DNA of 64,000 nt from Bacteroidales bacterium (GCA_017561665.1 JAFZBQ010000081.1:23881-87880); one strand, 5' to 3'; positions 26,913-42,667 are shown, counted from the first letter of the stretch. A program made the numbers and translations. Notes: generated by a model not told the origin, from the letters alone.

Positions 26913-26924
26913 ATCTGTTTCTAT

Positions 26925-29665: not shown

Positions 29666-29680
29666 TAAATTCACAAACAT

Positions 29681-29782
29681 ACCCTTAAAACAATTCAAGA
29701 TATGGGAAAACAAATAATTCTCAACATTGCGAATTATTCGCGAATTATTACTAACTTTGCATTGAAGACTTGTGGCGTATGA
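29681..29782 (+). pseudogene. Ghost 5' end of a second RhuM-like gene
   Basis: 29681-29710 matches 28625-28654 (leader plus ATG of the RhuM gene) at 26/30 ungapped positions. The residual ORF MGKQIILNIANY... stops after 26 codons. Confidence 0.5.
29752..29759 (+). promoter_or_regulatory. TAnnTTTG -7 box for higBA
   Basis: TAACTTTG, preceded by the near-palindrome TGCGAATTATTCGCGA (29728-29743). Confidence 0.45.
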
Positions 29783-30096: not shown

Positions 30097-30454
30097 GAAA
30101 GATTTGACCCCTTTTGTTGCAACACATCCTGGAGAACTTATAAAGGATGAGCTTCAGGCACGGAAGATGACACAAAAGCAACTGGCACAACTTGCCGGAA
30201 TTGCCGAATCTGTGCTTAGCGAAATAGTCAATGGCAAACGTAGTATTTCTATCAATACAGCAATTGCTTTAGAAAAGGCCATTGAGATACCCGCAGATTA
30301 TTGGGTGAATCTTCAATCCCAATACGATTTGGATTCATCCGTAATAGCCTTACGAGATAAAAAAAAAGCTACTGCGACACTTACCATTCCGGCTCGGGAT
30401 AGACGCCTGCTACAGGAAATTGCCCATAAGTTCGGTTGGGCGTGCGTGTTTTAG
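30089..30454 (+). CDS. higA: HigA-type HTH (XRE) antitoxin with C-terminal extension
   Basis: HPGELIKDELQARKMTQKQLAQLAGIAESVLSEIVNGKRSISINTAIALEKA is classic HigA. About 40 extra C-terminal residues. Confidence 0.8.
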   Translation: MSKKDLTPFVATHPGELIKDELQARKMTQKQLAQLAGIAESVLSEIVNGKRSISINTAIALEKAIEIPADYWVNLQSQYDLDSSVIALRDKKKATATLTIPARDRRLLQEIAHKFGWACVF

Positions 30455-30474
30455 CATATTCCCTTCTAAATCGC

Positions 30475-30520
30475 CTGGGACCGCAACGGAAAGAAGATTA
30501 ACACGAGGTCGGCGAGATAG
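30475..30520 (+). pseudogene. Ghost 3' end (last 15 codons plus stop) of a paralog of the 33046..33438 gene
   Basis: 42/46 nt identical to 33393-33438. All 4 differences are synonymous third positions (WDRNGKKINTRSAR*). Confidence 0.75.
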
Positions 30521-30717
30521 CAGGAAGGATGCCCCGAGTAACTGCTGCCCCCTTTATGCAGCTCATAACCGCGAAGTACAAATTGACGCCCGTCTTTGGA
30601 TTTCGCTACTGCATTACCCCCCGTTTTCCCCGTTATCTTGCAGCGAGACACAAATACTGGTCGTTATTTGTACCTCGGTTCACCGAAATGAGTATTTGTG
30701 AAATTATGAAATATTGG

Positions 30718-30725
30718 TAACTTTG
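30718..30725 (+). promoter_or_regulatory. TAnnTTTG -7 box for parDE
   Basis: TAACTTTG, followed by the TTGTACAA palindrome just before ATG 30743. Confidence 0.45.
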
Positions 30726-30742
30726 TGCAAACGTTTTGTACA

Positions 30743-30991
30743 ATGAAGACTACTTCTGTTGCGCTTGGCCAACATTTCGAGGAATTTATCCAGGCAAGCA
30801 TCCTAAGCGGGCGTTATAACAACGCCAGCGAAGTTGTCCGTTCCGGTCTCCGTCTTCTTGAGGATCGCGAGCAAAAAATGGCCGCGCTACGCTCTGCCAT
30901 CGAAGAGGGTTTGAATAGTGGTATTGTGGAAGATTTCGATACGCAGGATTTCCTGCTGCAGATGAAGGAGCGCAAATATGGCAAGATTTGA
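30743..30991 (+). CDS. parD: ParD-family antitoxin
   Basis: ORF trimmed to ATG 30743. MKTTSVALGQHFEEFIQASILSGRYNNASEVVRSGLRLLEDRE is typical of ParD/CopG-like antitoxins. Confidence 0.85.
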   Translation: MKTTSVALGQHFEEFIQASILSGRYNNASEVVRSGLRLLEDREQKMAALRSAIEEGLNSGIVEDFDTQDFLLQMKERKYGKI

Positions 30992-31295
30992 CATCACCAA
31001 AGAGGCCACAGACGACCTCTACAAGATTTGGGATTATACCGTTGATACCTGGTCAGAAGAACAGGCCGATAAGTATTATTCTGAGCTTATAGCCTCTTTT
31101 GAGGTCATTTCAGCCTCGCCATTAAATATCGGGAAGCCGTTTGATGAAATCATTCCGGGCATTCGCGGCCACCACGTCAGGCGGCATATGGTATTCTACG
31201 CCACGCAAGCTAACGGTCGAGTTCTGAGAGTTCGTGTTCTTCACGAGAAAATGGACTATCCACGCCACCTCAATCCATATATAGATGAGGCCTGA
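30978..31295 (+). CDS. parE: ParE/RelE-family toxin
   Basis: 105 aa, overlaps parD by 14 nt. DLYKIWDYTVDTWSEEQADKYYSEL...VLHEKMD is family-like. Confidence 0.85.
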   Translation: MARFDITKEATDDLYKIWDYTVDTWSEEQADKYYSELIASFEVISASPLNIGKPFDEIIPGIRGHHVRRHMVFYATQANGRVLRVRVLHEKMDYPRHLNPYIDEA

Positions 31296-31306
31296 CATCT
31301 GTCGCG

Positions 31307-31327
31307 CACTGCCATATTTTGGCAATA
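31307..31327. promoter_or_regulatory. Palindromic operator site 1 (CACTGCC-atatttt-GGCAATA)
   Basis: 7-N7-7 palindrome ending 46 nt before the AAA+ ATG. 31307-31326 is identical to 41202-41221. Confidence 0.6.
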
Positions 31328-31373
31328 TCATAGTATTTCTTTGCACCTTGAAAGAAAGGTTAAAAGTAATACT

Positions 31374-33014
31374 ATGGGAAACACTATCATTGACTTGATG
31401 TACAACATTAGGGAGAAGATGCGAAATGAGACAGGCGCAATGGCTATGTCAAATACTGGCAAAGCAAAAGATGAAATAGATGCACTCGCCGCAAGGCTTA
31501 ATCTGACTTCTATTCAATCTGTTTTTCTCACTGCAATTGTACAACGTTCTGGCAGGTATCGTCTGGACACGGACGACATCGCCTCTTTACTGGACCTTGA
31601 CTACCTTGACTTTCTCCGATACGACAGCGACTTGGAAACGCTGCGTAAACGCGGTTATATCCGTATTGACCTTGAGGGACAAATCACTATGCCTAAACAT
31701 GTGCTTAAAGCACTTAAAAATGATCAGGATATAACGCCTGAAACTGTCAGTGGTCTTTCAACAGGGCAGATACTTGTTCGCATCAAGCGTCAGCTAAGCT
31801 TTCTTGAAAACAATGAACAGAGCATAGAGGAGGTGTGCGAAATGGTCTGGCTATATATCACAGAGAATCCTGACACCAGTATCTCACGCACTTTCGCAAG
31901 GCATCGACGTATGAACCACATCATCGACAAAGAGTTAATTGTTCTTTGCGCACTTATCTTCAGATACTGGTTTAAGGACGACGATATGGTAGGATGGCAC
32001 GATATGGATGATTATTTCGAAGATGATGTGTTGGAAGATATGCGATCCTCATATTATGTAGAACATCTTATGTTACAGCGATGCGGCATCATAGAATTTA
32101 CTTCAGAAGGTGGTATGCTTACCAAAGACTACTTTCACATCAAGGATGACATCAAGGCCGAAATATTCGCTGATGTTGGTGGCCTAAAACAAAAAAAACA
32201 GCAAGTATCAGCCTCCCGCAAGCTCGAAGCCGGGCAGATATCACCAAAGGCGTTGTTCTACAACGATGCCGAGGGGCGTCAAGTGGAGCAGCTGCGCCTA
32301 TTGCTCAGCGAAAAGCGGTATGCAGAAATTCGCTCCAAGATTAAAGAAAAAGGTCTGCGCACAGGCTTCTCCTGCCTGCTTTACGGCGGTCCCGGCACAG
32401 GTAAGACCGAAACTGTGTACCAGCTAGCCCGCGAGTGCGGCCGCGACCTTTACATCGTGGACGTCTCCCAAATCAAGAGCTGCTGGGTCGGCGAGACCGA
32501 AAAGAACATCAAGGACGTGTTCAATAAATACCGTGCGTGCGTGGCCTCCGGCAGCACAGTGCCCATCCTCCTCTTCAACGAGGCCGACGCCATCTTCGGC
32601 ATCCGCCAGGAGGGCGCCTCCCGCGCCGTGGACAAGATGGAAAACAGCATGCAGAACATAATCCTCCAGGAGATGGAGGACCTCGACGGCATCCTGATAG
32701 CCACCACCAACCTCACCCAGAATCTGGACAGGGCATTCGAGCGCCGCTTCCTCTACAAGGTTCGCTTTAACAAGCCCTCCATGGAGGCCAAGACACACAT
32801 CTGGCAGACCATGATACCGTCACTCTCCGACGGCGAGGCAGAGCAGCTTGCCCGCGAGTTCGACCTCAGCGGCGGCCAGATAGAAAACGTTGCCCGCAAG
32901 AAAGCCATCAGTGACATAATCGGCCTTTCCGACAGCGGTTTCGACGCAATCCGCACCCTCTGCTCCGAGGAGACCATCACACGCTCGGCACCCATCAGAA
33001 AGATTGGGTATTAG
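31374..33014 (+). CDS. Classic-clade AAA+ ATPase with ~330-aa unknown N-terminal region
   Basis: ORF trimmed to ATG 31374. Walker A LLYGGPGTGKTE, Walker B ILLFNEADAIF, second region of homology ATTNLTQNLDRAFERRF. Confidence 0.85.
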   Translation: MGNTIIDLMYNIREKMRNETGAMAMSNTGKAKDEIDALAARLNLTSIQSVFLTAIVQRSGRYRLDTDDIASLLDLDYLDFLRYDSDLETLRKRGYIRIDLEGQITMPKHVLKALKNDQDITPETVSGLSTGQILVRIKRQLSFLENNEQSIEEVCEMVWLYITENPDTSISRTFARHRRMNHIIDKELIVLCALIFRYWFKDDDMVGWHDMDDYFEDDVLEDMRSSYYVEHLMLQRCGIIEFTSEGGMLTKDYFHIKDDIKAEIFADVGGLKQKKQQVSASRKLEAGQISPKALFYNDAEGRQVEQLRLLLSEKRYAEIRSKIKEKGLRTGFSCLLYGGPGTGKTETVYQLARECGRDLYIVDVSQIKSCWVGETEKNIKDVFNKYRACVASGSTVPILLFNEADAIFGIRQEGASRAVDKMENSMQNIILQEMEDLDGILIATTNLTQNLDRAFERRFLYKVRFNKPSMEAKTHIWQTMIPSLSDGEAEQLAREFDLSGGQIENVARKKAISDIIGLSDSGFDAIRTLCSEETITRSAPIRKIGY

Positions 33015-33045
33015 AGCGGGTTCGGCGGCGATACGGGCATAAAAT

Positions 33046-33438
33046 ATGCAGTTACAGCACAAAAACACCGTTATGAGCAAACTGTTCACTATCTTAGCGT
33101 TAGTTTTGGTTATGGGAACAAACACGCATCGCATCTCTTCTGTCGAAACCCACGGCAGCTGGATTTATTTCTACGACGAAACGGGCCACAAATATCAAAC
33201 CCTCTCCGTCTCCAGCGTTGGAGAGGTGCAGGGCTATAGCTCCACCTTTATGGTAAGCAGGAATGGCAGCTGGGTCTATCTATATGATTCGGAGGGGCGC
33301 AAATACCACACCATGAGCGCCAGCTACACAGGCGACGTGATTGGCGTTGCCGGCGACACCTTCACCACCCGCAACGGCAGCTGGATCTACACCTGGGACC
33401 GCAACGGCAAGAAGATCAATACAAGGTCGGCGAGATAG
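33046..33438 (+). CDS. Small secreted or membrane-anchored protein with three YD-like repeats
   Basis: 130 aa (alternative start ATG 33073) with a hydrophobic N-terminus LFTILALVLVMG. Three ~35-aa repeats: GSWIYFYDETGHKY, GSWVYLYDSEGRKY, GSWIYTWDRNGKKI. Confidence 0.65.
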   Translation: MQLQHKNTVMSKLFTILALVLVMGTNTHRISSVETHGSWIYFYDETGHKYQTLSVSSVGEVQGYSSTFMVSRNGSWVYLYDSEGRKYHTMSASYTGDVIGVAGDTFTTRNGSWIYTWDRNGKKINTRSAR

Positions 33439-33492
33439 ATACCCATAGCGATTCCAACCATATAAGCATCGCTACTATCAGTTTCTCCCCAC

Positions 33493-33546
33493 TATTTGCA
33501 AAAAGTAGGGAGAAAAGTTTCTATATTTGCAAAAAAGTAGGGAGAA
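33493..33546 (+). repeat. Tandem direct repeat TATTTGCAAAAAGTAGGGAGAAA (x2) carrying the Fic promoter and RBS region
   Basis: Copies at 33493-33515 and 33523-33546. The second contains TATATTTG (33522-33529) and abuts ATG 33547. The 13-mer AAAGTAGGGAGAA recurs twice inside the gene. Confidence 0.7.
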
Positions 33547-34530
33547 ATGGCAACTATAGACAAGCTTCTTGCCGTGATTGAACGGTACAAGAACCTGGGC
33601 ATTGATTCGCAGATAGACTACGACAAGTTCTACCTGTATTCCATCATTACTCATTCCACGGCAATCGAAGGCTCAACAGTAACCGAGTTTGAGAACCAGA
33701 TGCTGTTCGACGAAGGCATTTCCGCCAAGGGCAAAACCATTGTCGAGCAGATGATGAACCTTGACCTTAAACGAGCCTACGAAGAGAGTATATCCCTGGC
33801 AAAAAAGCATACCCCGTTCAGCATCGATATGCTGTGCCAACTGGCACACCTTGTTATGGAACACACCGGTGCGACATACAAGACCGCCCTCGGAGATTTC
33901 TCCTCCGCCAATGGCGATTTGCGACTATTGAACGTCACCGCAGGTGTCGGTGGACAATCATATATGAGCTATCAGAAAGTACCGGCAAAACTGGAAGAGT
34001 TCTGCAAATGGCTGAACGCCGAAAGGGGGAAAGATCTCAATACCGCGCAGAGATACAACCTGAGCTTCGAGGCCCACTACAGGCTCGTAACAATTCACCC
34101 CTGGGCAGATGGTAATGGGCGTATGGCCCGATTGGTGATGAACCATCTCCAGTTTGAATTCGGCCTGGTTCCTACCAAGGTTTTAAAAGAAGACAAGGGT
34201 GATTACATCAATGCCCTCATCAATACCAGAGAATCCGGAGACATTGCCATCTTCCAAGAGTTTATGGTTGCGGAGATGGTCAAAACTTTGACCAAGGACA
34301 TTGACTTATTCGTCAAATCGACAGAAGAAGAAAGTAGGGAGAATAAGCCAAAAAGTAGGGAGAAAATTCTGGAGTTACTGCGAATTCATCCAGAGTACAC
34401 CACCGCCATCCTTGCGAAGGAAATCGGCGTCACCTCCAAAGCTATCGAAAAACAACTGGCCATCCTCAAGAAAGAAGGTCTCCTCCGCCGCGAAGGCTCC
34501 GACCGGAAAGGCAGATGGGTGGTGAAATAA
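33547..34530 (+). CDS. Fic family protein (class II, N-terminal inhibitory helix) with C-terminal winged-helix
   Basis: Fic motif HPWADGNGRMAR, inhibitory-type motif STAIEG near the N-terminus, and a C-terminal wHTH-like tail (ILELLRIHPEYTTAILAKEIGVTSKAIEKQLAILKKEGLLRREG). Confidence 0.85.
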   Translation: MATIDKLLAVIERYKNLGIDSQIDYDKFYLYSIITHSTAIEGSTVTEFENQMLFDEGISAKGKTIVEQMMNLDLKRAYEESISLAKKHTPFSIDMLCQLAHLVMEHTGATYKTALGDFSSANGDLRLLNVTAGVGGQSYMSYQKVPAKLEEFCKWLNAERGKDLNTAQRYNLSFEAHYRLVTIHPWADGNGRMARLVMNHLQFEFGLVPTKVLKEDKGDYINALINTRESGDIAIFQEFMVAEMVKTLTKDIDLFVKSTEEESRENKPKSREKILELLRIHPEYTTAILAKEIGVTSKAIEKQLAILKKEGLLRREGSDRKGRWVVK

Positions 34531-34571
34531 TCAAAACATATTATCCACTAATAGTTTTTGTCAGTAATAAA

Positions 34572-35942
34572 TCATTTCATACAACTATCAACTGCTTTTT
34601 CATATTCTCTAACTAATAACACTACTCGATCAATATCAACAATAGTCGAGGTAAAAATAAAGTCTTTCGGTATCACCCCTATAGTCATATATACTCCAGC
34701 TCCAAAACGGGAAGGGCGCTCGATCGGCAACTTCATTTCTTCACATACTCTCAGTAACTTGTAATGATATCGGTTTCTGCATTCTGATGGATTATATTCT
34801 CCGTTATATTCAATCTTTACACAAAGCTTGCTTTGTTCAAACTGAAGATACATTCTGACCTCGTCATTCTCAACGAAATGCCACCAGAGCCCAAGGAAGC
34901 CACCAGATGGATTTGCGACATAGCTCCAACTTTCAACATCAATACATTTCTCTAGAGCGCGATAAAAACCTTGCCATTCGTACCATCTCCATTCATCAAC
35001 CGAAACACTTCGATAATTATTGGTTGCATCTTCTATATCCTGAAGATGCTTGCGGTAATCCAGTACTAAAGGATTTGATCCATAATAATAGTTCAAGATT
35101 CCCAATAAAGCACCTCTATCAACAACTGAATAACCTAATTCATTAACAGCTTTTGCAATAGAGCCCGCCTCATTTTCTGTTTTAACATATGCGTAGAATA
35201 GTTTATCACGTTTATTATGATACTCATCTTCCACAGTTTTCCTATATCGGCTCAATTGATTATCATGAACGTATGTTCCTATTTTGTCTTCAATGATGAG
35301 GAATGCATCATCATTAATCTCTGCCCATACATCGATGTTTTCCCACTGTCTTCCAACATCAATCTTGTGAATATCTTCTTTACTCATACCTGTGAGCAAT
35401 GCTACAAGCGACTTTCCCAGATTAGACAATCCTTCATCCGTGGCCAAATAAGAATCATCCGCCCACTTTATTAACCAAGCAAGGATTGCATCTTGACTTA
35501 ATTCTGATGTGGCATATGAAAAAATATTTGGTGCATTACTGTCTGCCACAGTTGCATAATTCCTCAAGTATTCTCCATTTAACAACTCAGATAGTTTTAA
35601 CAGTCTTGGAGCATATAACTCCATATTATCGCTAAGGAAACTATAAAGGAAAGCCAGATTATCCTCATTGACAACTTTCTCTTCCATCGAAGTCGGCTTC
35701 TTCCTTATTGTGGAAATAAGTAGTATTGCCAAATCTAGAACTCGCCATAAAGGTAATTCTTCGCTTTGTCTAGACCACCGTTTTCCATCCTCAGACCATC
35801 TCCAGACTTTAGCTGACACATCTTCTGGGTTCCAAGTTGCCCTGCCAAGAGAAATAAACTTTGCATCTCCTGCATTCGCATCTATTTCGGAATAGTCAAT
35901 AGAAACAATGGGTTTATGTTTCAGATGCCGCGGTATTTCCAT
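34572..35942 (-). CDS. PD-(D/E)XK nuclease-like protein with unknown N- and C-terminal regions (gene G)
   Basis: 456 aa. SELSQDAILAWLIKWAD ... ENIDVWAEINDDAFLIIEDKIGTYVHDNQLSRY fits the D...(D/E)xK core of PDDEXK-type families (memory). The N-terminal ~140 aa are unassigned. Confidence 0.6.
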   Translation of the reverse strand: MEIPRHLKHKPIVSIDYSEIDANAGDAKFISLGRATWNPEDVSAKVWRWSEDGKRWSRQSEELPLWRVLDLAILLISTIRKKPTSMEEKVVNEDNLAFLYSFLSDNMELYAPRLLKLSELLNGEYLRNYATVADSNAPNIFSYATSELSQDAILAWLIKWADDSYLATDEGLSNLGKSLVALLTGMSKEDIHKIDVGRQWENIDVWAEINDDAFLIIEDKIGTYVHDNQLSRYRKTVEDEYHNKRDKLFYAYVKTENEAGSIAKAVNELGYSVVDRGALLGILNYYYGSNPLVLDYRKHLQDIEDATNNYRSVSVDEWRWYEWQGFYRALEKCIDVESWSYVANPSGGFLGLWWHFVENDEVRMYLQFEQSKLCVKIEYNGEYNPSECRNRYHYKLLRVCEEMKLPIERPSRFGAGVYMTIGVIPKDFIFTSTIVDIDRVVLLVREYEKAVDSCMK

Positions 35943-35978
35943 ATGCTTAATTCTTTTATTGTAGAATGCTTTATATTC

Positions 35979-36245
35979 TTACCAGCTACTGTGCAGTTTT
36001 TCGTTCTCTTCATCGTCGAACATCCACGACGAATCGCCAGCGTCATCGAAAAGGGCGCTAATATCGTCTATAACACTTTCCTCCGTGTCATAACAGTCAT
36101 CTAAGTATCTATCCATATCCATTTCGAGCTGAGCCGCATAACGCTCAGCCTCTCCTTCATGAAATGCATACTTTCCAATAACGATTGGATTACCGCTGTA
36201 GCGTTCAAGTTTTTGTTGCAATTCTGCAAGTTCCTTTCTAGTCAT
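35979..36245 (-). CDS. Hyperacidic small protein (gene F)
   Basis: 88 aa. By my count 24 Asp/Glu versus 8 Lys/Arg. C-terminal half DMDRYLDDCYDTEESVIDDISALFDDAGDSSWMFDDEENE. Confidence 0.6.
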   Translation of the reverse strand: MTRKELAELQQKLERYSGNPIVIGKYAFHEGEAERYAAQLEMDMDRYLDDCYDTEESVIDDISALFDDAGDSSWMFDDEENEKLHSSW

Positions 36246-36272
36246 TTGGATTCCGCTTTTAAGATAGAACGT

Positions 36273-36659
36273 TTATGCTATCATGAATTCGCCAGGTTCA
36301 ACACCGTCCAATAATGATTGTACTGTTTTGATTATCTCATCATCTGACATGACATCTCTATTATCAACATACTCTTTGAACGCCATTACTTCATCAGTAA
36401 ATCTATTAAGTGAAAGGTATAAACGGGCTCTCAAATCCTCCATACTTTGATTTCCAACCAAAGGCTCTTGTAATTCAAAAATATCCTTTGCAGCGGTATT
36501 TACATCTGTATCATTAAAGCCCAGAGCCATTATATCCGTTATCCATCTACTTATTAAAGCATTATTGTCGTAAATGTTATCCAAATTGCCGATTCTATAG
36601 ATCCTTTTCATAAGACTCTCCTGGATCAACATCTTAACATCTTGTTCGATTTCGTACAT
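36273..36659 (-). CDS. Hypothetical protein (gene E)
   Basis: 128-aa ORF, 27 nt upstream of F. No family recognised. Confidence 0.6.
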   Translation of the reverse strand: MYEIEQDVKMLIQESLMKRIYRIGNLDNIYDNNALISRWITDIMALGFNDTDVNTAAKDIFELQEPLVGNQSMEDLRARLYLSLNRFTDEVMAFKEYVDNRDVMSDDEIIKTVQSLLDGVEPGEFMIA

Positions 36660-36687
36660 AATAAAGTCTTTGATTTTGTTAGTATTG

Positions 36688-36695
36688 CAAATGTA
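36688..36695 (-). promoter_or_regulatory. TAnnTTTG -7 box (minus strand) for genes E-F-G
   Basis: The reverse complement reads TACATTTG, 28 nt upstream of ATG 36659. Confidence 0.4.
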
Positions 36696-36727
36696 CAGTG
36701 ATTCATTAACATATCAAATATCGAAGA

Positions 36728-37507
36728 TCATATTATAATCTTCCATCCCTTTCGTTTAGCGAGGATATCCCAATCGCCGGGGACGTCGGCTGGTATAATG
36801 ATTTGTGGCGGATTGTCAAACAGATCATGTCGATGAAACTGCGGAAGTTTTGAGAACAAGTGGAGTAGCCAGTCTGAATTAATTGGATTTCCTCCTATGT
36901 TTATGCTTTTAATGTTTGGATTAACGTCGCTGACAAATACTTGTTTTAAGCGATTTAATTCAAGGCTAATGTGTTCTGTTCTTTGAATGTTAAGCAGATA
37001 GCATTCTGTTAAGTTTTGACCACTACAAATGAAGGATTTGCATTCTCCGAAGATGTATATGGGCGAGTTTGTGTCATGCTTTACTGTAATTTCACATATT
37101 CGGTTCTCATCATAATCTAACCCTATCGTTAATTCCGCATAACGGTGCTTTAGTGTTGTTACTATTCTCAACGGAGTCAGCGGCATAATGGACATTTCAA
37201 TAGACGATCTGGGACTATTGAGCACTATTGAGGGATTAGATTGTTTAGCGTGCACCATTCGCGATTTGGTATGTTCATAGAGTTCTCGCCGCAGCACCCC
37301 AAAATCCTTACTCGAATAACTCAATTCACATAAGGGCATGTCTTTCAATCCGCGCACTATGTCGTAATCTATTTTCCACTCCTTGCACAACTCCCGCCAG
37401 CCGTCTTTACGGCCAGCCAAGTATATTAATCGCTTCCTCATCTTGCCATTGGAAGCGACCTTCTCCTTGAAGTTAATCAGGTTAAGTTGTTTGCGAAATT
37501 CTTGCAT
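36728..37507 (-). CDS. LRR-like protein, paralog 1 (P1)
   Basis: 259 aa, roughly 40% identical by eye to 38174..38953. The C-terminal third is LRR-like (ISLELNRLKQVFVSDVNPNIKSINIGGNPI). Confidence 0.65.
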   Translation of the reverse strand: MQEFRKQLNLINFKEKVASNGKMRKRLIYLAGRKDGWRELCKEWKIDYDIVRGLKDMPLCELSYSSKDFGVLRRELYEHTKSRMVHAKQSNPSIVLNSPRSSIEMSIMPLTPLRIVTTLKHRYAELTIGLDYDENRICEITVKHDTNSPIYIFGECKSFICSGQNLTECYLLNIQRTEHISLELNRLKQVFVSDVNPNIKSINIGGNPINSDWLLHLFSKLPQFHRHDLFDNPPQIIIPADVPGDWDILAKRKGWKIII

Positions 37508-37588
37508 GGCGCGATACTAATCATCGTTAATGCCATTATCTAGCAGTGTAATTAATTGCCTGTGAACTACGATGAAATCCCACACGAA

Positions 37589-37610
37589 TACAACACAAAT
37601 GTTGTACAAC
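37589..37610. promoter_or_regulatory. Palindromic operator candidate in the P1/XRE divergent region
   Basis: TACAAC-acaaat-GTTGTACAAC. GTTGTACAAC is itself a perfect 10-nt palindrome. A TAGCTTTG -7 box for the XRE gene lies at 37625-37632. Confidence 0.5.
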
Positions 37611-37660
37611 TCAAATATTGTTCTTAGCTTTGCGGAAAACTAAATGCAGAAAAATATCCT

Positions 37661-37993
37661 ATGAGTAAAGCAATTGAATTTCTGAATGCGCACAAGTCCC
37701 CCACTAATGCAAAGTGGCGCGAAGAAGCTCAGTGGCGGAAGGATAATGAGTACTGGCTAAAGTATGCGCAGATAATCACTCTGGCAGTACATAAAAGCAT
37801 GGACGAGAACAACCTGACCCAAGCTCAATTAGCAGAGAGGATGGGTTGTACCCAGCAATACGTATCCAATCTTCTGAAGGGTAACACCAACATGACAATC
37901 GAAACTATTGCTCGTCTTGAGATTGCCCTAAATTTAGATCTTATCAAGACTGCTCTATCCTCAGTTCTATCGGCTAGGACAACAAAAACTTAG
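37661..37993 (+). CDS. XRE-family HTH transcriptional regulator
   Basis: 110 aa. LTQAQLAERMGCTQQYVSNLLKGNTNMTIETIARLEIAL is a typical HTH_3. Confidence 0.8.
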   Translation: MSKAIEFLNAHKSPTNAKWREEAQWRKDNEYWLKYAQIITLAVHKSMDENNLTQAQLAERMGCTQQYVSNLLKGNTNMTIETIARLEIALNLDLIKTALSSVLSARTTKT

Positions 37994-37997
37994 TTCC

Positions 37998-38093
37998 GTT
38001 GATGCAAAGACTCATATCTGGCAGACCATGATACCGTCGCTCTCCGCCGGCGAGGCGGAGCATATTCAGCACCAGTCAAAGAGTGGCGGTTAA
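37998..38093 (+). pseudogene. Ghost 3' end of a paralogous AAA+ ATPase gene
   Basis: 38004-38060 aligns with 32787-32843 of the intact AAA+ gene. It translates VDAKTHIWQTMIPSLSAGEAEHIQHQSKSGG* versus MEAKTHIWQTMIPSLSDGEAEQLAREFDLSGGQ; most differences in the conserved part are synonymous. It starts 4 nt after the XRE stop. Confidence 0.75.
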
Positions 38094-38173
38094 TAAGCTT
38101 CTATCTCTCATACAAAGAAATAAATCGGTAGTGCTATAATCCGGCATTCTCCAGTCATTATAATAAAAGAGTG

Positions 38174-38953
38174 TCACTTATTGGAACCCAATACACGCCA
38201 TCCACGTCTTTCTGCAAGTGCCTTCCAATTTCCGGGAATACCAGAGAAAGAGATAACATGTACTTCATCAGGATTCTTCTTACGGTCCACGTAAGGCAGT
38301 TGAGAGATAAAACCAGGGATATAGCCTTCATCGAGAGGGTTATCCGCAAGAATTACCACTGCCAATTTGGGATTGATGCTACCAATGGGAATTGTGGTTA
38401 ACCGGTTCCCGGTCAACCAAATCCCTTCCAACCTGGGGTTATTAAGCAAATAGCACTCTGTCAACTCTTGGCCACCGCATTGAAACATTATAAAATCCCC
38501 AAAAATGTATATCGGCGAGCCCGAATCATGGTTAATTAATGGACATGCCAAATGGATACCGGCAGGTTGTACCACGTACTCAGAATAGCGATGTTGTTTA
38601 GTCGTTACTATCCGCAATGGGGCTAATGGCTTAAAGTACATTTGAATTTTCTTCTGGGGGCTGTTTAGAATAATGGCAGGACCGCACTCCCTTGCATTTA
38701 TCATACGCTGCTTGGTCGCTTCATACAACCTATACCGCATTTCCATAAAGTCATTTGAGAGATAGTTCAACTCTGAGATAGACATATTCTTTAGCCCACA
38801 CAATACGTCATAATCTTCCATCCACTCCTTACTCAACTCCAGCCAGCCATCCTCCTTCCCAAGAAGCTCTACTATTCGATCTCGTTTCTTTGGTGTGTTG
38901 GTAATCTTCTTTTTTAAGTTAATCAGTTCTAACTGTTTACGAAAAGTATCCAT
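38174..38953 (-). CDS. LRR-like protein, paralog 2 (P2)
   Basis: 259 aa. LTGNRLTTIPIGSINPKLAVVILADNPL is a canonical LRR pattern. Shared blocks with P1: FRKQL.LIN, PL.PLRIVTT, SPIYIFG, LTECYLLN. Confidence 0.65.
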   Translation of the reverse strand: MDTFRKQLELINLKKKITNTPKKRDRIVELLGKEDGWLELSKEWMEDYDVLCGLKNMSISELNYLSNDFMEMRYRLYEATKQRMINARECGPAIILNSPQKKIQMYFKPLAPLRIVTTKQHRYSEYVVQPAGIHLACPLINHDSGSPIYIFGDFIMFQCGGQELTECYLLNNPRLEGIWLTGNRLTTIPIGSINPKLAVVILADNPLDEGYIPGFISQLPYVDRKKNPDEVHVISFSGIPGNWKALAERRGWRVLGSNK

Positions 38954-38972
38954 AATAGCCGATGTCTAATAG

Positions 38973-39443
38973 CTAATCTCCCCAAGTCATCATTCTTTCT
39001 GAGAGGATCTTCCAGAACAGCATCCAGGCCTTGTCGAAGCGCAAGCGCTGGGGTTCAGACCAGAAGATTTCTCCGTGGTAATTTGTGCTGGGAATGCGTG
39101 CACGGTTGCGCATATTGACATAGTGTTTGAAAGACTCAGGCTTGGGTTGCCAATCATCTTCCAACTCGTACTCATAGTCCTTTTCGCCACCCTTAGCCTT
39201 GATGATATCCATCATCTTCTGTGCGCATTGTATCTGATTGGCATAGTAGGGGCCATTGGCCGCGTATGACAAGTGCCGGTTGTACCGCTCCATTGTTTCG
39301 AGCTTAGCCCTTATGACTTCAAGAAGGTATTCGTAGTCCCAGTCTTCGTTGAAAGCCATTCTCCAGCGTCTTTCTGCCCATTCATGATGGAACTGCATTT
39401 CTCTTTGGCGTTCTGTTGCTTGTTGTTTGTTATAGTGTGCCAT
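38973..39443 (-). CDS. Hypothetical Trp/Tyr-rich protein (gene B)
   Basis: 156-aa ORF, 3 nt downstream of gene A and 19 nt upstream of P2. No family recognised. Confidence 0.6.
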   Translation of the reverse strand: MAHYNKQQATERQREMQFHHEWAERRWRMAFNEDWDYEYLLEVIRAKLETMERYNRHLSYAANGPYYANQIQCAQKMMDIIKAKGGEKDYEYELEDDWQPKPESFKHYVNMRNRARIPSTNYHGEIFWSEPQRLRFDKAWMLFWKILSERMMTWGD

Positions 39444-39446
39444 ATC

Positions 39447-40241
39447 TTAGTCTTTGCTTGGTTCTATTAATGAGTAACGATTCCCAGCCTGATCGGACCT
39501 TTGCCGGTGCACTATTTTGACTTCGCACCAGAAATCGTTCATTCGAAGAAGGTCGGGTAGTGAATAGCACTTATGCACGCACAGGTCGTGCACTGCATGA
39601 CAGATGCAGATGTCTTTGAACTGCTCGCGTGTCAGAGCTCCCGCTGCCCATGAATTGCCATCATCGAGATAGTTTTCCAAACCGAATTCACTAACGGGCA
39701 TTTCCGGACGGTGTTCAAGATCGAATGTGGTTCTGCAGAAAGCGCATTCCGGCTCGTATATAGCCACATAATAATCATAGAGTATCTCAAGCATTGTCAC
39801 GTAATCTGAGCCATATATGTCGCTTATCTGATAGCCATTTTTCAGCTCCTCTTCTTTCCATATTATTGAATCATCCCAACGGCAGAACACATAGCCAACA
39901 GTCCCTTCAATTGATATCATATCGTCAAACTCCTTATCATAGCCGCCATTCAGTATAGCACGGTAAAGATTGCTGGCTTTAGAATACATCTGGCGAGTCA
40001 GCTCGGTCAAACGAGTGTTTACCTTTTCAAAGCCGGCCACCTCTTCAGGAGTGCAGAGAAACATATCATTAAGCAGATTGGAGCGCTCCTGGAGCAATTC
40101 CTTCAATCTCTCTTTTGTTTCTGTATCCCATTTGAAAGACTGGCTTGTATAAGGCCATCCGCCACCACCAATGAAGTAGTTCGCCACCTGTTTTATTTGC
40201 TTTTCAAGACTCGTTAATTGCTGTTTCTGTTGCATATTCAT
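39447..40241 (-). CDS. Hypothetical protein with C-terminal Cys/His cluster (gene A)
   Basis: 264-aa ORF, first gene of a tight three-gene operon. Has CAFC ... CICHAVHDLCVHKC. No family recognised. Confidence 0.6.
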   Translation of the reverse strand: MNMQQKQQLTSLEKQIKQVANYFIGGGGWPYTSQSFKWDTETKERLKELLQERSNLLNDMFLCTPEEVAGFEKVNTRLTELTRQMYSKASNLYRAILNGGYDKEFDDMISIEGTVGYVFCRWDDSIIWKEEELKNGYQISDIYGSDYVTMLEILYDYYVAIYEPECAFCRTTFDLEHRPEMPVSEFGLENYLDDGNSWAAGALTREQFKDICICHAVHDLCVHKCYSLPDLLRMNDFWCEVKIVHRQRSDQAGNRYSLIEPSKD

Positions 40242-40279
40242 AGTTAATCTACTTGTTATGCCGCGAAGCTAATTGACAC

Positions 40280-40344
40280 CTATGCCAAAAAGTGGCAGTC
40301 AAAGAAAATGGGAGTAAAAGATAGACTGCCGGAAAATGGCAGTC
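40280..40344. promoter_or_regulatory. Palindromic operator sites 2 and 3 in the divergent promoter region
   Basis: Site 2 at 40280-40300 is CTATGCC-aaaaagt-GGCAGTC, 38 nt from ATG 40241 on the minus strand. Site 3 at 40324-40344 is GACTGCC-ggaaaat-GGCAGTC, perfect, 41 nt from ATG 40386. Confidence 0.6.
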
Positions 40345-40385
40345 ACGCAATATTCCTTGCGCTCAAAATCAAACAATATCGAATT

Positions 40386-40997
40386 ATGAATGTATTTGAA
40401 CCACAGTTTTACCCCTTCACTCTACCAAACGCCTTTCATTTGCTTATTGCAGGTAATTCAAGGCAAGAAGTAGATTACTTCATCAATCAGACTATCAAGT
40501 CTCTGCATCCAAATGAATCGAACAATGAGCCTTGCTCAACGACATTCCTTGACACGCGAGAGATGCCATTACCCATTATTAACGACAAACTTAATGCTGT
40601 AATAGAAGGTCTCGAGTTAAGATACAAACGGCAAAAGATGGAACATTTTTTAACGGTCATTATAAATGATTTTGCAGACATAGTGCCTGATCAGGCGACC
40701 TTTAAATCGATGGTAAAGATTGCAGAAAAAGGACGGCGTGTAGGCATACACTTGATTGCAGGCACCAGCCATATTAATGAAGATGTCATTACCGGCCAGA
40801 TCAAGGCTCTGTTTCCAACAAGGCTCGCACTTCACACATCAAACAGAAAACAATCCAAGTTGGTTTTAGACTGTGCCGGTGCAGAACTACTGGCCGATCA
40901 CGGAGAGTGTTTATTATTTCACATAGATACCGTTTCTCACTGTCTTTATGATGATCCTGATGCAGTCGGTTCAATTAATAACAATGAACATGAATAG
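40386..40997 (+). CDS. FtsK/SpoIIIE-like P-loop domain protein with degenerate Walker A and B motifs
   Basis: ORF 40308..40997 trimmed to ATG 40386. HLLIAGNSRQEVD sits where FtsK has HLLIAGATGSGKS. VIINDFADI replaces the Walker B pattern (hhhhDExxD). IAEKGRRVGIHLIAGTSHINEDVITGQIKALFPTRLALHTSNRKQSKLVLDCAGAELL parallels the FtsK motor core. Confidence 0.6.
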   Translation: MNVFEPQFYPFTLPNAFHLLIAGNSRQEVDYFINQTIKSLHPNESNNEPCSTTFLDTREMPLPIINDKLNAVIEGLELRYKRQKMEHFLTVIINDFADIVPDQATFKSMVKIAEKGRRVGIHLIAGTSHINEDVITGQIKALFPTRLALHTSNRKQSKLVLDCAGAELLADHGECLLFHIDTVSHCLYDDPDAVGSINNNEHE

Positions 40998-41187
40998 ACT
41001 TGAGGATAACAGAGTAATCCTTGATAAACTCGGTAAACTGATAGAAACATACCCGGATCAACGCTTCGGGCAGTTAATTGCTAACTATATATTTCCAAAA
41101 TACCGGGAGGAGGATATCTTTTGGGAAGAGTCTGAAGAAACTGCACAAAGGGTGACTTCTTTCAGCCAGAAAGAACAATCAGAATAA
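40984..41187 (+). CDS. Small hypothetical protein, start overlapping the FtsK-like stop
   Basis: About 67 aa (MNMNRLEDNRVILDKLGKLIETYPDQRFGQLIANYIF...). ATG 40984 (or 40990) overlaps stop 40995-40997, which suggests translational coupling. Confidence 0.5.
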   Translation: MNMNRLEDNRVILDKLGKLIETYPDQRFGQLIANYIFPKYREEDIFWEESEETAQRVTSFSQKEQSE

Positions 41188-41201
41188 TTAATCAATTTAA
41201 C

Positions 41202-41222
41202 CACTGCCATATTTTGGCAATT
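41202..41222. promoter_or_regulatory. Palindromic operator site 4 (CACTGCC-atatttt-GGCAATT)
   Basis: Ends 38 nt before the WYL ATG. Shares an identical 20-mer with site 1. Confidence 0.6.
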
Positions 41223-41260
41223 TTATTGATTATATTCGCGGTGAAATAACAGAAACGACT

Positions 41261-42169
41261 ATGGCGAAGAACTTTTTCAAACGTTACATTTGGCTTATTG
41301 ATCTGCTGTACAAGCGCGGGCACGCGACCTTTGAACAGATAAGCCGTGCGTGGGCGTTCAGCCACGTGAATGAGACCGGTGAAAGTAGTCTACCGCAACG
41401 CACATTCTTTAACCACATAGCGGCTATAGAGGATATCTTTGACATAGTCATTAAGTGCAACCGCACCTCCGGCGAATATTTCATTGCAAATACAGACGAC
41501 CTGGAGGGCGACGGCATCCGCAACTGGCTGCTGCAGTCCATATCGCTGAATAACCTGCTTGAAGAGAGTGCCGGGATGCGCGACCGAATCCTCTTCGAAA
41601 AGGTGCCGTCCAGCCAAGATTGGCTGACGGATATTATTGATGCTATGCGTGCCGACAGAGCAATCGAGTTGACCTATCAGAGTTTCCATCGCAACGAGCC
41701 ATCAACCTTCATTGCACATCCATACTGCCTCAAACTGTTCAAGCAGCGTTGGTATCTGCTGGCTCGAAGCGAAGAGTACAAACAGCCTAGAATCTATGCG
41801 CTGGACCGTATCCACAACATCCAGCCGAGCGAAATCAAATTGAAGTTACCCCGCAAGTTCGATGCGGAGAAGTTCTTCGACAACTACTTTGGAATAATTG
41901 CAGACACCGAAGTCTATGCACAAACAGTCAAAATTAAGGTTGATGAGGATCAGGTTGGATATTTCAATTCGCTGCCGCTCCATCATTCACAGAAGGAGAT
42001 TGAGACTACCGATGAGTACTCCATTTTCGAGTATAAACTTGCGCCGACATTTGATTTCGAGCAGGAAATCCTATCCCATGGACCATCGGTCGAGGTGTTG
42101 GAACCTGCCGGCTTACGCGATTGGGTCGCTTCCGATGCGACAAAAATGGCAAGCATTTACATTAAGTAG
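41261..42169 (+). CDS. HTH-WYL domain transcriptional regulator
   Basis: 302 aa. N-terminal wHTH-like segment (YIWLIDLLYKRGHATFEQISRAW). WYL-domain core AIELTYQSFHRNEPSTFIAHPYCLKLFKQRWYLLARSEEYKQPRIYALDRI. Confidence 0.8.
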   Translation: MAKNFFKRYIWLIDLLYKRGHATFEQISRAWAFSHVNETGESSLPQRTFFNHIAAIEDIFDIVIKCNRTSGEYFIANTDDLEGDGIRNWLLQSISLNNLLEESAGMRDRILFEKVPSSQDWLTDIIDAMRADRAIELTYQSFHRNEPSTFIAHPYCLKLFKQRWYLLARSEEYKQPRIYALDRIHNIQPSEIKLKLPRKFDAEKFFDNYFGIIADTEVYAQTVKIKVDEDQVGYFNSLPLHHSQKEIETTDEYSIFEYKLAPTFDFEQEILSHGPSVEVLEPAGLRDWVASDATKMASIYIK

Positions 42170-42172: not shown

Positions 42173-42667
42173 ATGACCGACTTTGCCGCGATAGATTTCG
42201 AGACTGCGAACGAGTGCCCTTCAAGCGTGTGCAGCGTGGGTGTCGTGGTGGTGCGCGACGGCATCGTAACGGACAAATTCTACAGCCTGATACATCCTGA
42301 GCCGGAGTACTACAAGTGGTTTTGCCAGCAGGTCCACGGGCTCTGCCCGGAAGACACGGAAGATGCACCGGTTTTCCCCTATGTGTGGGAAAAGATTGAG
42401 CCGCTTATAGAGGGCCTGCCGCTGGTTGCACATAACGCCCGGTTCGACGAAGGGTGCCTCAAGTCGGTTTTCCGTGTATATCGGATGGATTATCCGGATT
42501 ATGTCTTCTACGATACGCTGACCGCTTCCCGCAGGCATTTCGGCCAGTGTCTTCCCAATCACCAGCTCCATACGGTGGCAGAAGCCTGCGGCTTCGACCT
42601 TAGGCATCATCACCACGCCCTGGCCGATGCCGAAGCTTGCGCGCACATCGCGTTGCAATTACTATAA
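42173..42667 (+). CDS. DEDDh 3'-5' exonuclease (DnaQ/epsilon-like)
   Basis: 164 aa. ExoI AIDFETAN, ExoII VAHNARFDEGCL, ExoIII HHALADAEA. Starts 3 nt after the WYL stop. GC looks core-like again. Confidence 0.85.
   Translation: MTDFAAIDFETANECPSSVCSVGVVVVRDGIVTDKFYSLIHPEPEYYKWFCQQVHGLCPEDTEDAPVFPYVWEKIEPLIEGLPLVAHNARFDEGCLKSVFRVYRMDYPDYVFYDTLTASRRHFGQCLPNHQLHTVAEACGFDLRHHHHALADAEACAHIALQLL

Follow-up and report, generated by a model that had tools for sequence, protein, structure and literature searches.

Four shared palindromic promoter sites point to a WYL-family regulon in a variable island of a Bacteroidales bacterium

The stretch of DNA analysed here, referred to as the window, is 64 kb (64,000 nucleotides) long and comes from a Bacteroidales bacterium of gut or rumen. 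The island that it carries contains the following genes:

31374-33014, plus strand: AAA+ ATPase (Pfam PF00004, 5.8e-24; classic AAA domain at residues 334-465)
33046-33438, plus strand: 130-aa protein, its N-terminus resembling a signal peptide, with three repeats inside
38174-38953, minus strand: gene P2, 259 aa, paralogue of P1 (36728-37507)
38973-39443, minus strand: gene B, 156 aa, following A in other loci and also fused to a larger protein
39447-40241, minus strand: gene A, 264 aa, a recurring family in related islands
40386-40997, plus strand: FtsK-like protein, 203 aa (NCBIfam FtsK, 1.7e-13; PADLOC mad8 and SspH)
41261-42169, plus strand: 302-aa regulator that combines a winged HTH with WYL and WCX domains (Pfam, AlphaFold model, Foldseek)
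42173-42667, plus strand: DEDDh 3'-5' exonuclease (NCBIfam and PADLOC)

For the AAA+ ATPase, the A-B-P2 genes, the FtsK-like gene and the WYL regulator, these identities agree with those proposed in a previous sequence-only reading: family matches confirmed the WYL regulator, the AAA+ ATPase and the FtsK-like protein, and family searches with A, B and P2 matched no known family. The AAA+ ATPase resembles IetA (PADLOC); its N-terminal 320 residues matched nothing known, and a profile search of the PDB was empty. Judging from the common strand and the 31-nt gap, the 130-aa protein is possibly encoded on the same transcript as the ATPase. In the FtsK-like protein, the motor domain is recognisable in the C-terminal part only, with residues 107-177 aligning with an intact relative. 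The DEDDh exonuclease gene starts 4 nt past the WYL stop codon, is located directly 3' of the WYL gene in 33 of 70 related loci, and is probably co-transcribed with it. Two further proteins of the island have an HTH, namely one of the XRE type (37661-37993) and a Fic protein. PADLOC detected neither BREX nor CBASS genes among the scanned island genes, and none appear in the gene lists of the window and its close relatives.

The sequence-only reading had drawn attention to four copies of a palindrome of the GACTGCC-N7-GGCAGTC type, placed 38-46 nt from start codons. When the window was read directly, all four 21-mers were present with the positions and sequences reported, and a degenerate copy was also considered:

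31307-31327, plus strand: predicted operator site 1, CACTGCCATATTTTGGCAATA, in the AAA+ gene promoter (sequence reading and pattern match)
37528-37548, minus strand: possible fifth site, degenerate (CACTGCTAGATAATGGCATTA, 8 nt, TAGTATCG), ending 4 nt before the ATG of P1
40280-40300, minus strand: predicted operator site 2, GACTGCCACTTTTTGGCATAG as read on the minus strand, in the A-B-P2 operon promoter
40324-40344, plus strand: predicted operator site 3, GACTGCCGGAAAATGGCAGTC, perfectly palindromic, in the FtsK-like gene promoter
41202-41222, plus strand: predicted operator site 4, CACTGCCATATTTTGGCAATT, in the WYL regulator's own promoter

The distances from sites 1-4 to the respective start codons are 46, 38, 41 and 38 nt, as had been claimed. 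An orthologue in related locus L086 supports 40386 as the start of the FtsK-like gene, since it begins with MNVFEPQ at an equal distance from its own site. Sites 2 and 3 are 44 nt apart, centre to centre, and back-to-back pairs with the same separation occur in two other loci (L001 and L004); the 17-mer of site 3, identical or nearly so, drives AAA+ genes in L200 and L001. As to the fifth site, four chance matches of equal score are found elsewhere in the 64-kb window, so that its position is the one argument in its favour.

The 20-mer CACTGCCATATTTTGGCAAT is, as previously noticed, identical in sites 1 and 4, which might suggest that the four sites are functionless leftovers of a duplicated segment, or else chance matches. 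However, the flanks of the two sites are unrelated, and therefore these sites are not a duplicated segment. Moreover, the pattern [GC]ACTGCC-N7-GGCA[AG]T, whose matches in 64 kb are sites 1, 3 and 4 only, is expected 0.00 times, and none of 100 dinucleotide-preserving shuffles contained any match. The looser core TGCC-N7-GGCA occurs 5 times in the window as compared to 1.34 expected; four of these matches are the reported intergenic sites, and the fifth, starting at 57782, has a G+C-rich spacer. The motif is not frequent and, within the 64-kb window, is confined to island promoters.

Promoters recognised by the Bacteroidetes primary sigma factor have the consensus TTTG at -33 and TAnnTTTG at -7. 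In the window, a -7 box of this type is found exactly 8 nt from each of the 21-mers:

31336-31343, plus strand: -7 box TTTCTTTG of the AAA+ promoter, 8 nt past the 21-mer
40264-40271, minus strand: -7 box TAGCTTCG of the A-B-P2 promoter, 8 nt past the 21-mer
40353-40360, plus strand: weak -7 box TTCCTTGC of the FtsK-like promoter (window sequence)
41231-41238, plus strand: -7 box TATATTCG of the WYL promoter (window sequence)

With respect to TAnnTTTG, the boxes at sites 1, 2 and 4 agree at 5 of 6 positions and that at site 3 at 3 of 6; in the promoter of the FtsK-like orthologue of L086, the -7 box is TACCTTGC. The comparison set consisted of 80 Bacteroidales loci encoding WYL orthologues (45-61% identity). 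It revealed a composite module, made of aCTGCC-a.atTTT-GGCAg, then exactly 10 nt, then TAnnTTTG. Perfect -7 boxes at an offset of exactly 10 from the 17-mer number 76 in the related loci, and every other offset gave at most 2; the exact box is present at 76 of 193 sites, and many more sites match it at 5 of 6 positions. The spacing is invariant in about 130 distinct promoters belonging to more than 30 gene families, and TAtcTTTGCa is the -7 consensus derived from 130 distinct regulon promoters. The palindrome is centred about 19 nt ahead of the -7 box, spans approximately -41 to -21, and has a spacer that is asymmetric with respect to the direction of transcription. In this layout, the palindrome takes the position of the -33 element in a Bacteroidetes primary-sigma promoter. 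A TTTG located 19-20 nt upstream of the -7 box is found in 12% of the ordinary promoters of the same loci vs. 0 of 102 regulon promoters, an absence that is partly forced, because the palindrome fills those positions. On the other side of this count, 58% of regulon promoters have a TTTG 14 nt upstream of the -7 box, within the operator.

In the 80 related loci and the window taken together, 159 of 1185 genes have the module in front of them, and controls gave, per roughly 1000, 0 (reversed sequence), 1 (shuffled) and 2 (inside genes). The site is kept upstream of the orthologues of the genes that it precedes in the window: 63 of 85 WYL genes, 18 of 22 AAA+ orthologues, 7 of 12 "A" orthologues and FtsK-like genes (L018, L086 and L087). 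It also precedes many further cargo genes, among them 11 of 13 members of a 172-aa family, 5 of 9 DnaB_C-only proteins, and genes for PLD nuclease, GyrB-like, PolIII-alpha-like and DUF262 proteins. Such conservation across dozens of genera, with variable spacers and control sequences near zero, already refutes the reading of the sites as products of chance or duplication, to which we assign practically no probability. The density of sites declines with the distance from the WYL gene, being 1.2 per kb just upstream of it, 0.23-0.30 per kb up to -4 kb, and at most 0.1 per kb farther away.

The cargo genes differ between close relatives. The controlled genes look like interchangeable cassettes of a chromosomal variable island, and the idea of "one controlled system" suggested by the sequence-only reading probably gives way to that of cassettes. 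Likeness to defence islands is seen in the IetA-like AAA+ ATPase, SoFic, PDC-S26, PDC-S48, DUF262/GmrSD and the PLD nuclease, and no signatures of RecA, UvrA, UvrB, RuvB, RadA or RecN were found in about 2 Mb of loci, including 120 retrieved by motif alone. The cargo looks like a set of defence and DNA-metabolism genes rather than canonical repair genes.

The regulator has the features of an HTH-WYL-WCX (class A) WYL regulator. It contains a WYL domain (Pfam PF13280, E 3.4e-18, residues 121-188), whose WYL-motif residues Trp164 and Tyr165 do not vary among 44 homologues, and a C-terminal WCX (dimerisation) domain (Pfam PF25583, E 1.8e-12, residues 221-297), and has the palindrome in its own promoter. 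No Pfam HTH family matched it at E <= 0.01; a winged HTH made of three helices and a beta-hairpin wing is present in the AlphaFold model (residues 3-75, pLDDT about 70-90), which is of moderate confidence overall (pLDDT 73, linker below 50). The protein carries a single domain set and has no adjacent paralogue, so that two HTH-WYL-WCX halves are absent.

Operator variants accompany changes in this protein. The recognition helix RTF(H/F)NH pairs with the operator CTGCC..GGCAG, the helix RTFHKW with TATGCC..GCATA, and the wing GIKISYT with CTCTGCC..GGCAGAG. Because the variants co-vary with recognition helix and wing, the predicted operator can be tied to the WYL protein, and we infer that the WYL protein binds the sites. 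A different factor might bind the palindrome, or this might itself be an element recognised by the polymerase, the link with WYL being one of neighbourhood only; the XRE-type and Fic proteins of the island are available for the former role, and the conserved TTTG together with a primary-sigma -7 box would suit the latter. Nevertheless, WYL is the sole regulator that remains beside the sites across the 80 loci, where neither the XRE nor the Fic gene is conserved. The site in the own promoter of most WYL genes, the operator variants that follow the substitutions in helix and wing, and a twofold symmetry that suits a dimeric wHTH protein also make this explanation very improbable. The candidate WYL regulon of the sequence-only reading, in which one palindromic operator joins four transcription units to the island's WYL regulator, is supported by conservation, by the density near WYL and by operator-helix co-variation.

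A profile search of the PDB with the regulator gave only PafBC (8.5e-11), thus the best sequence match, and DriD (3.5e-9); BrxR and CapW were absent from the sequence-profile matches at E <= 0.01. Foldseek ranked DriD first (2.5e-12), followed by PafBC, CapW (1e-8) and BrxR (2e-7), and the alignments to DNA-bound DriD are full-length, with an identity of only 15-20%.

DriD, the ssDNA-activated activator of Caulobacter crescentus, has the same wHTH-WYL-WCX architecture. As in the island, a palindrome of roughly 20 bp is found at several dispersed promoters, some of which have two sites, and DriD binds its own promoter, which corresponds to the site predicted in the WYL promoter. DriD sites lie across the -35 position, always equally far from the -10 element, and their promoters are devoid of a -35 element (PMC13004042); this layout is matched here by a site over the -33 position, a fixed distance to the -7 box and no -33 element. 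However, DriD promoters are of the alphaproteobacterial sigma-73 type, whereas those described here are of the Bacteroidetes -33/-7 type, and the DriD regulon includes recA, didA, bapE, dnaG and recJ, as compared to clustered island cassettes with no canonical repair gene seen beside a site. The DriD ssDNA contacts Tyr192, Arg204 and Trp206 align with Tyr165, Arg177 and Tyr179 of the regulator; in the family alignment, Tyr165 and Tyr179 are invariant and Arg177 is at least 90% conserved. The ssDNA-stacking Tyr240 of DriD is replaced by Ile, and no conservation is seen at the positions of its Lys202 and Arg207.

PafBC activates the DNA damage response of mycobacteria and other Actinobacteria. 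Its regulon, about 150 genes and mostly devoted to repair, came to light by way of a composite motif, "operator plus -10", which is similar in type to the one described here. Two HTH-WYL-WCX halves, either paired as a heterodimer or fused, make up PafBC, whereas the island encodes a single 302-aa chain. PafBC requires RNA polymerase for promoter binding. PafBC promoters are without a functional -35 element (PMC9186387). DriD, PafBC, CapW and BrxR all bind ssDNA (PafBC, PMC11804915; BrxR/CapW type, PMC13622015), which in the case of PafBC is the activating signal (PMC11804915).

BrxR and CapW are the regulators to which the sequence-only reading had compared the island protein. They resemble it in being wHTH-WYL-WCX dimers with palindromic operators, ssDNA as inducing ligand and a location in defence islands; they repress an adjacent BREX or CBASS operon, neither of which was found here, and give weaker structural matches (1e-8 to 1e-5). 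Among characterised proteins, the activators DriD and PafBC, rather than BrxR or CapW, stand closest to the island regulator. A repressor of this kind, with the same operator, regulator and regulon, would cover the -33 region and the spacer, thereby blocking RNA polymerase until ssDNA released it. An operator at about -41 to -21 is in a classic position for occlusion; the -7 boxes, mostly perfect or nearly so, might function unaided and hence need a repressor; and the conserved TTTG of the operator could be a polymerase contact for which the regulator competes. The cargo resembles defence islands, characterised WYL regulators of defence islands are repressors released by ssDNA (PMC13622015, PMC9186387), and BrxR and CapW are also significant structural matches. 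On the other hand, occlusion does not need a spacing fixed to the base pair, as observed across the regulon promoters, which are themselves devoid of a -33 element; in both sequence and fold, activators are the closest relatives, BREX and CBASS genes were not found, and, unlike BrxR/CapW, one regulator would here serve four or more promoters through a fixed-spacing module. We regard repression as quite conceivable but somewhat doubtful. Since the nearest relatives are activators and the geometry is the DriD layout, gating by repression is not favoured, and we favour activation over derepression.

The reading that we prefer, at a probability of roughly 0.5, is that a ligand-sensing WYL regulator directly activates four, perhaps five, units through a module that replaces the -33 element. 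The HTH-WYL-WCX regulator encoded in the island (41261-42169) would have the palindrome as its operator and occupy it as a dimer. We infer that the WYL domain takes a nucleic-acid ligand, most probably ssDNA arising from DNA damage or from phage or plasmid attack. The ligand-bound regulator would turn on the AAA+ unit, the A-B-P2 operon, the FtsK-like unit and its own operon with the DEDDh exonuclease, and perhaps the P1 unit, holding RNA polymerase on a -33-less promoter by direct activation of the DriD/PafBC type. Each exchangeable cassette would bring its own copy of the module. Because the site-plus-promoter module recurs before the regulator and before its changing neighbours, it is very likely that one switch, probably ssDNA-sensing, controls the whole island.

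Bacteroidales are without LexA (PMC8565304), and this is what gives interest to a WYL regulon. DdaA of Moraxellaceae, another lineage without LexA, is a WYL activator that replaces SOS, and controls DNA-damage and anti-phage genes from many promoters with the palindromic motif CGWCA-N5-TGWCG (PMC12392091). Motif, phylum and promoter type differ from those of the island, and none of the recA, ssb, uvrA/C, gyrA/B and ruvAB genes of its regulon was found beside the sites. Some of the cargo proteins are replication and segregation proteins in truncated or apparently ATPase-dead form: the C-terminal domain of DnaB alone, the ATPase domain of DnaA alone, N-terminal fragments of GyrB, motor fragments of FtsK and a shortened PolIII alpha. 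Such proteins might be inducible dominant-negative brakes on replication and division, or decoys for phage inhibitors. That the WYL regulator is a general ssDNA alarm of Bacteroidales, a DriD-like activator with a portable module and with brakes or decoys perhaps among its cargo, is an unlikely, speculative extension. If it were true, the alarm would signal DNA damage or phage or plasmid attack, and a new cassette would join the regulon just by carrying the module with the operator in place of the -33 element.

Four palindromic 21-mers upstream of four transcription units had been described in the sequence-only reading as a candidate WYL regulon. Re-reading the sequence confirmed their coordinates and sequences, the identical 20-mer common to sites 1 and 4, and the distances from site to start codon (46, 38, 41, and 38 nt for sites 1 to 4, respectively). 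Since the flanks of sites 1 and 4 are unrelated, these two are not a duplicated segment. Past each 21-mer lies a -7 box; the palindrome CTGCC-N7-GGCAG with a downstream TAnnTTTG box at set spacing is hereafter called the module.

Site 1, 31307-31327, serving the AAA+ gene; -7 box TTTCTTTG, 8 nt past the 21-mer
Site 2, 40280-40300, minus strand, serving the A-B-P2 operon; -7 box TAGCTTCG, 8 nt past the 21-mer
Site 3, 40324-40344, serving the FtsK-like gene; -7 box TTCCTTGC (weak), 8 nt past the 21-mer
Site 4, 41202-41222, serving the WYL gene; -7 box TATATTCG, 8 nt past the 21-mer

When the 64-kb window was searched with the proposed pattern [GC]ACTGCC-N7-GGCA[AG]T, only sites 1, 3, and 4 matched, and none of 100 dinucleotide-preserving shuffles did. 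The minimal core TGCC-N7-GGCA occurs five times in the window as compared to 1.34 expected; four of these are the reported sites, and the spacer of the fifth copy, which starts at 57782, is G+C-rich. Divergent promoters are served by sites 2 and 3, which lie back to back at a distance of 44 nt. The same spacing was found in L001 and L004, two of the loci collected from related genomes and metagenomes (L followed by a number), and in further pairs of this kind the distance is 33-78 nt.

The source is an uncultured Bacteroidales bacterium, represented by metagenome assemblies. G+C content is 37-46% in the island (about 28.5-42.7 kb), as compared to about 55% in the left flank and about 49% in the right flank. 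The island genes are the following.

28514-31295 and 33547-35942, two Fic genes, one with an HTH, and HigBA-like and ParDE-like toxin-antitoxin pairs
Within 28514-31295 / 33547-35942, DUF6530/PD-(D/E)XK protein (PADLOC PDC-S26)
31374-33014, AAA+ ATPase, C-terminal half like IetA and Cdc48-type ATPases
36728-37507, minus strand, P1, 259 aa
38174-38953, minus strand, P2, 259 aa, paralogue of P1
38973-39443, minus strand, B
39447-40241, minus strand, A
40386-40997, FtsK-like protein (NCBIfam, PADLOC)
41261-42169, WYL regulator with WYL and WCX domains
42173-42667, DEDDh 3'-5' exonuclease, starting 4 nt past the WYL stop codon

No family match was obtained for A, B, P2, and P1 in Pfam, NCBIfam, PADLOC, or PHROGs, and among the 80 related loci and the window the P1/P2 family is restricted to the window's species. 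The N-terminal 320 residues of the AAA+ protein matched nothing, and a PDB profile search with them was also empty. Of the FtsK-like protein, residues 107-177 alone could be aligned to an intact relative of FtsK type; inspection by eye shows AGNSRQEV at the Walker A position, as compared to AGATKQGKS in relatives, and INDF at the Walker B position, so that from its sequence the protein looks ATPase-dead. In the window scan, the operator was absent at the toxin-antitoxin cassettes, both Fic genes, the PD-(D/E)XK gene, and the XRE gene. Therefore, the toxin-antitoxin, Fic, and PD-(D/E)XK genes fall outside the predicted regulon. An origin from a phage or mobile element was considered and rejected: A, B, P1, P2, and the small ORFs had no match in PHROGs, just 9 of 2.9 million viral contigs contain the WYL family, and no tRNA gene was found at the island borders. 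The composite motif had 6 viral matches; their spacers are all G+C-rich, in keeping with chance.

Upstream of P1, at 37528-37548 (minus strand), there is a degenerate copy of the module (CACTGCTAGATAATGGCATTA, 8 nt, TAGTATCG), whose score is no better than that of four chance matches elsewhere in the window. Its -7 box ends just 4 nt ahead of the P1 ATG, and therefore any transcript from there would be leaderless or nearly so; this copy is no more than a possible fifth site. Just downstream of P2, at 38131-38147 (minus strand), a weak palindrome-like sequence with 3 mismatches (ATGCCGGATTATAGCAC) is accompanied by a good -7 box (TTTCTTTG) at canonical spacing, and may be the relic of a former cassette promoter. 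A sigma-54 promoter, with TGGCA as the -24 element, was rejected by eye, as the GG-N10-GC partner is missing at the right spacing.

The comparative set consisted of 80 loci fetched through WYL orthologues 45-61% identical to that of the window. The family is large in Bacteroidales, with 3154 proteins at E <= 1e-10 and at least 557 matches confirmed among one-genome-per-species contigs. In 64 of the 80 loci, CTGCC-N7-GGCAG with up to 2 mismatches was found within 160 nt 5' of the WYL start, mostly at -54 to -59 and followed by TAnnTTTG. Overall, 196 copies with up to 1 mismatch were counted in 1.22 Mb, as compared to about 34 expected. Simple ORF calling gave 1256 genes, which were grouped into families by BLAST clustering, and a site model was defined as the palindrome with a -7 box 9-11 nt downstream and a start codon within 160 nt. 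This model matched 159 of 1185 upstream regions; among the controls, reversed sequence had 0 matches, shuffled sequence 1, and the interior of genes 2. The module was present in 63 of 85 cases for WYL, 18/22 for the AAA+ orthologues of 31374, 11/13 for a 172-aa family, 7/12 for A, 5/9 for the DnaB C-terminal domain alone, 4/13 for PLD nuclease, and 4/11 for short GyrB-N-like proteins. Single or few cases were found for FtsK-like proteins, the DnaA ATPase domain alone, shortened PolIII alpha, YgjP/SprT-like peptidases, DUF262/GmrSD, an AAA_5 ATPase, and a zinc-ribbon protein. Because the same families carry the module in relatives, all four target classes of the window recur as targets elsewhere. 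The regulon proposal is thus supported beyond autoregulation of the WYL gene, since the module precedes several gene families. Sites are densest in the first kb 5' of WYL, at 1.2 per kb; the figure drops to 0.23-0.30 per kb as far as -4 kb, and to at most 0.1 per kb farther out.

Bacteroidetes primary-sigma promoters have a -7 element TAnnTTTG and a TTTG element near -33. As the promoters are of this type, an E. coli-type promoter scan was set aside, and the local -33/-7 geometry was derived empirically from these loci. The consensus of 130 distinct promoters is aCTGCCa.atTTTGGCAg, N10, TAtcTTTGCa; a perfect TAnnTTTG occurs exactly 10 nt past the 17-mer in 76 cases, and at every other offset in at most 2. 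In ordinary promoters of the same loci TTTG lies 19-20 nt upstream of the -7 box, whereas in the regulon promoters it is never there and is found instead at 14 nt, inside the operator. Therefore, the palindrome occupies the -33 position, roughly from -41 to -21. The spacer is asymmetric relative to the direction of transcription, with T at positions 10-12 and a much weaker A at positions 6-8.

Two further arrangements of WYL promoters were observed. In L010, L022, L023, L025, L026, L032, L076, and L078, a second palindrome lies about 24-45 nt upstream of the one embedded in the promoter, which may add a layer of autoregulation; the DriD-controlled bapE promoter likewise has two sites. In L003 (about 880-915), and similarly in L006, L011, L019, and L021, the module lies at -128 to -135, and in the long leader a T run comes after a G+C-rich hairpin (GGGCCTCCGCAGGGATGCGCAGGCCCTTTT), a terminator-like structure that might be an attenuator ahead of the regulator gene.

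In close relatives, WYL and the exonuclease occupy the same chromosomal slot with different cargo. L086, whose WYL protein is 87% identical to that of the window, shares with it the left flank (24292-29665; two aminotransferases, a peptidase S13, and a Fic gene), the 130-aa/Fic2 block, the FtsK-like unit, and the WYL-exonuclease pair. It lacks segments 29666-33034 (HigBA, ParDE, site 1, and the AAA+ gene) and 34525-40315 (from the PD-(D/E)XK gene through A and site 2), and carries in their place a 172-aa gene that has a site of its own. Homology between L086 and the window resumes 4-8 nt upstream of sites 3 and 4, as though the operators marked the cassette borders, and this points to cassettes that each move together with a module of their own. 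The cargo of L087 (WYL 82% identical) comprises FtsK, two GmrSD genes, a PLD nuclease, and a KaiC-like ATPase operon, with sites upstream of the FtsK gene, the ATPase operon, and WYL. The exonuclease directly follows WYL in 33 of 70 loci; the AAA+ gene directly precedes it in 14 of 63 and lies anywhere within 10 kb in 21 of 63. BLAST clustering grouped island proteins of about 200 aa (L008, 4436-5062; L014, 6589-7209) with the N-terminal portion of GyrB; they matched no Pfam family, and by eye the GHKL Asn is lost (ALAVDEF or ESFLDEY vs. IIDNSIDEY). L005 contains a second, full-length, divergent GyrB-like paralogue (2551-4482), preceded by a weaker site (1 mismatch, -7 box 4 of 6). Among the cargo are thus copies of replication and segregation proteins that are truncated or seem inactive.

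The site could be linked to the WYL protein through co-variation. The recognition helix RTF(H/F)NH pairs with CTGCC..GGCAG operators; a Prevotella-like clade with helix RTFHKW has TATGCC..GCATA, and a clade with wing GIKISYT has the extended CTCTGCC..GGCAGAG in place of AACTGCC..GGCAGTT. Thus, operator variants co-vary with the predicted DNA-reading parts of the protein, and no other regulator is conserved beside the sites in the 80 related loci, the window, and the close relatives.

As to the kind of regulator, the suggested analogy with BrxR and CapW is better replaced by DriD and PafBC as the nearest relatives. A family profile matched, among PDB sequences, only PafBC (8.5e-11) and DriD (3.5e-9). 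In the AlphaFold model (pLDDT 73), a poorly defined linker joins the winged HTH (3-75) to the WYL barrel and the WCX domain, and Foldseek ranked full-length DriD-DNA-ssDNA complexes first (2.5e-12), followed by PafBC, CapW (1e-8), and BrxR (2e-7). A response to ssDNA is common to these four regulators. The ssDNA-contacting Tyr192, Arg204, and Trp206 of DriD align with Tyr165, Arg177, and Tyr179; across the aligned family both tyrosines are invariant, with Arg177 conserved to at least 90%. DriD Tyr240 aligns with Ile.

In the cryo-EM work on DriD, its site overlaps the -35 position, the distance from site to -10 is identical in every regulated promoter, and a recognisable -35 is missing (PMC13004042); PafBC promoters also have no functional -35 (PMC9186387). 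The island layout, with the palindrome at -33 and a fixed distance to the -7 box, is the Bacteroidetes equivalent of the DriD arrangement. Because of this DriD-like layout, and because DriD and PafBC rank nearest, we prefer direct activation by the WYL regulator, with a probability of about 0.5. Repression by the WYL regulator, with derepression of the BrxR/CapW kind, is a serious rival to which we assign a sizeable minority share: the cargo resembles defence-island content, the -7 boxes are mostly near-perfect, and a site over -33 is also well placed for occlusion. Inducible, coordinated expression would result under activation or derepression alike.

LexA-type/SOS regulators are absent from Bacteroidales (PMC8565304), and in Moraxellaceae the WYL activator DdaA replaced SOS, with repair and defence genes under its control (PMC12392091). 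A motif-first scan of metagenome contigs gave 120 loci, about 35 of which have a WYL gene inside the fetched stretch; many of those without it are chance matches from unrelated environments. The genes 3' of these sites encode WYL, AAA+, DUF262/GmrSD, PolIII-alpha-like proteins, YgjP-like peptidases, and small unknown proteins. No signatures of RecA, UvrA, UvrB, RuvB, RadA, or RecN were found in about 2 Mb of loci, nor recA, uvrA, or ruvB among the 120 motif-first loci. Over the contigs covered, the visible regulon is therefore local and island-centred, and a wider one may exist. We also observed that a fixed-spacer operator variant, CTGCCCCAAAACGGCAG or CTGCCCTAAAACGGCAG, recurs 5' of different small genes (104-242 aa; a YgjP-like peptidase among the targets) in L090, L094, L096, L099, L123, L133, L149, L163, L167, L170, L176, and L204, mostly rumen metagenome contigs; some contigs have it in two copies, and in some cases it lies close to WYL, exonuclease, or AAA+ genes.

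The mechanism class is already known from DriD, PafBC, BrxR, CapW, and DdaA; what stands out here is the fit to the Bacteroidetes promoter type, the base-pair-fixed geometry, a regulon that varies cassette by cassette, and the truncated or seemingly inactive replication and segregation proteins in the cargo. WYL regulators are already familiar as switches of DNA-damage and anti-phage responses. In the literature searched, none was described in Bacteroidales, a dominant order in gut and rumen communities, and no WYL regulator, operator, or regulon for Bacteroides, Prevotella, or Alistipes. The predicted operator, the composite promoter module of fixed geometry, and the comparative regulon of about 130 distinct promoters are directly testable, and open the way to testing how DNA stress or infection is sensed and to predicting which island genes respond. 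Many uncharacterised cargo families, among them A, B, P1/P2, the 172-aa family, and the AAA+ N-terminal domain, could be studied as one co-induced set, and the module could double as an inducible promoter part for Bacteroidetes engineering.
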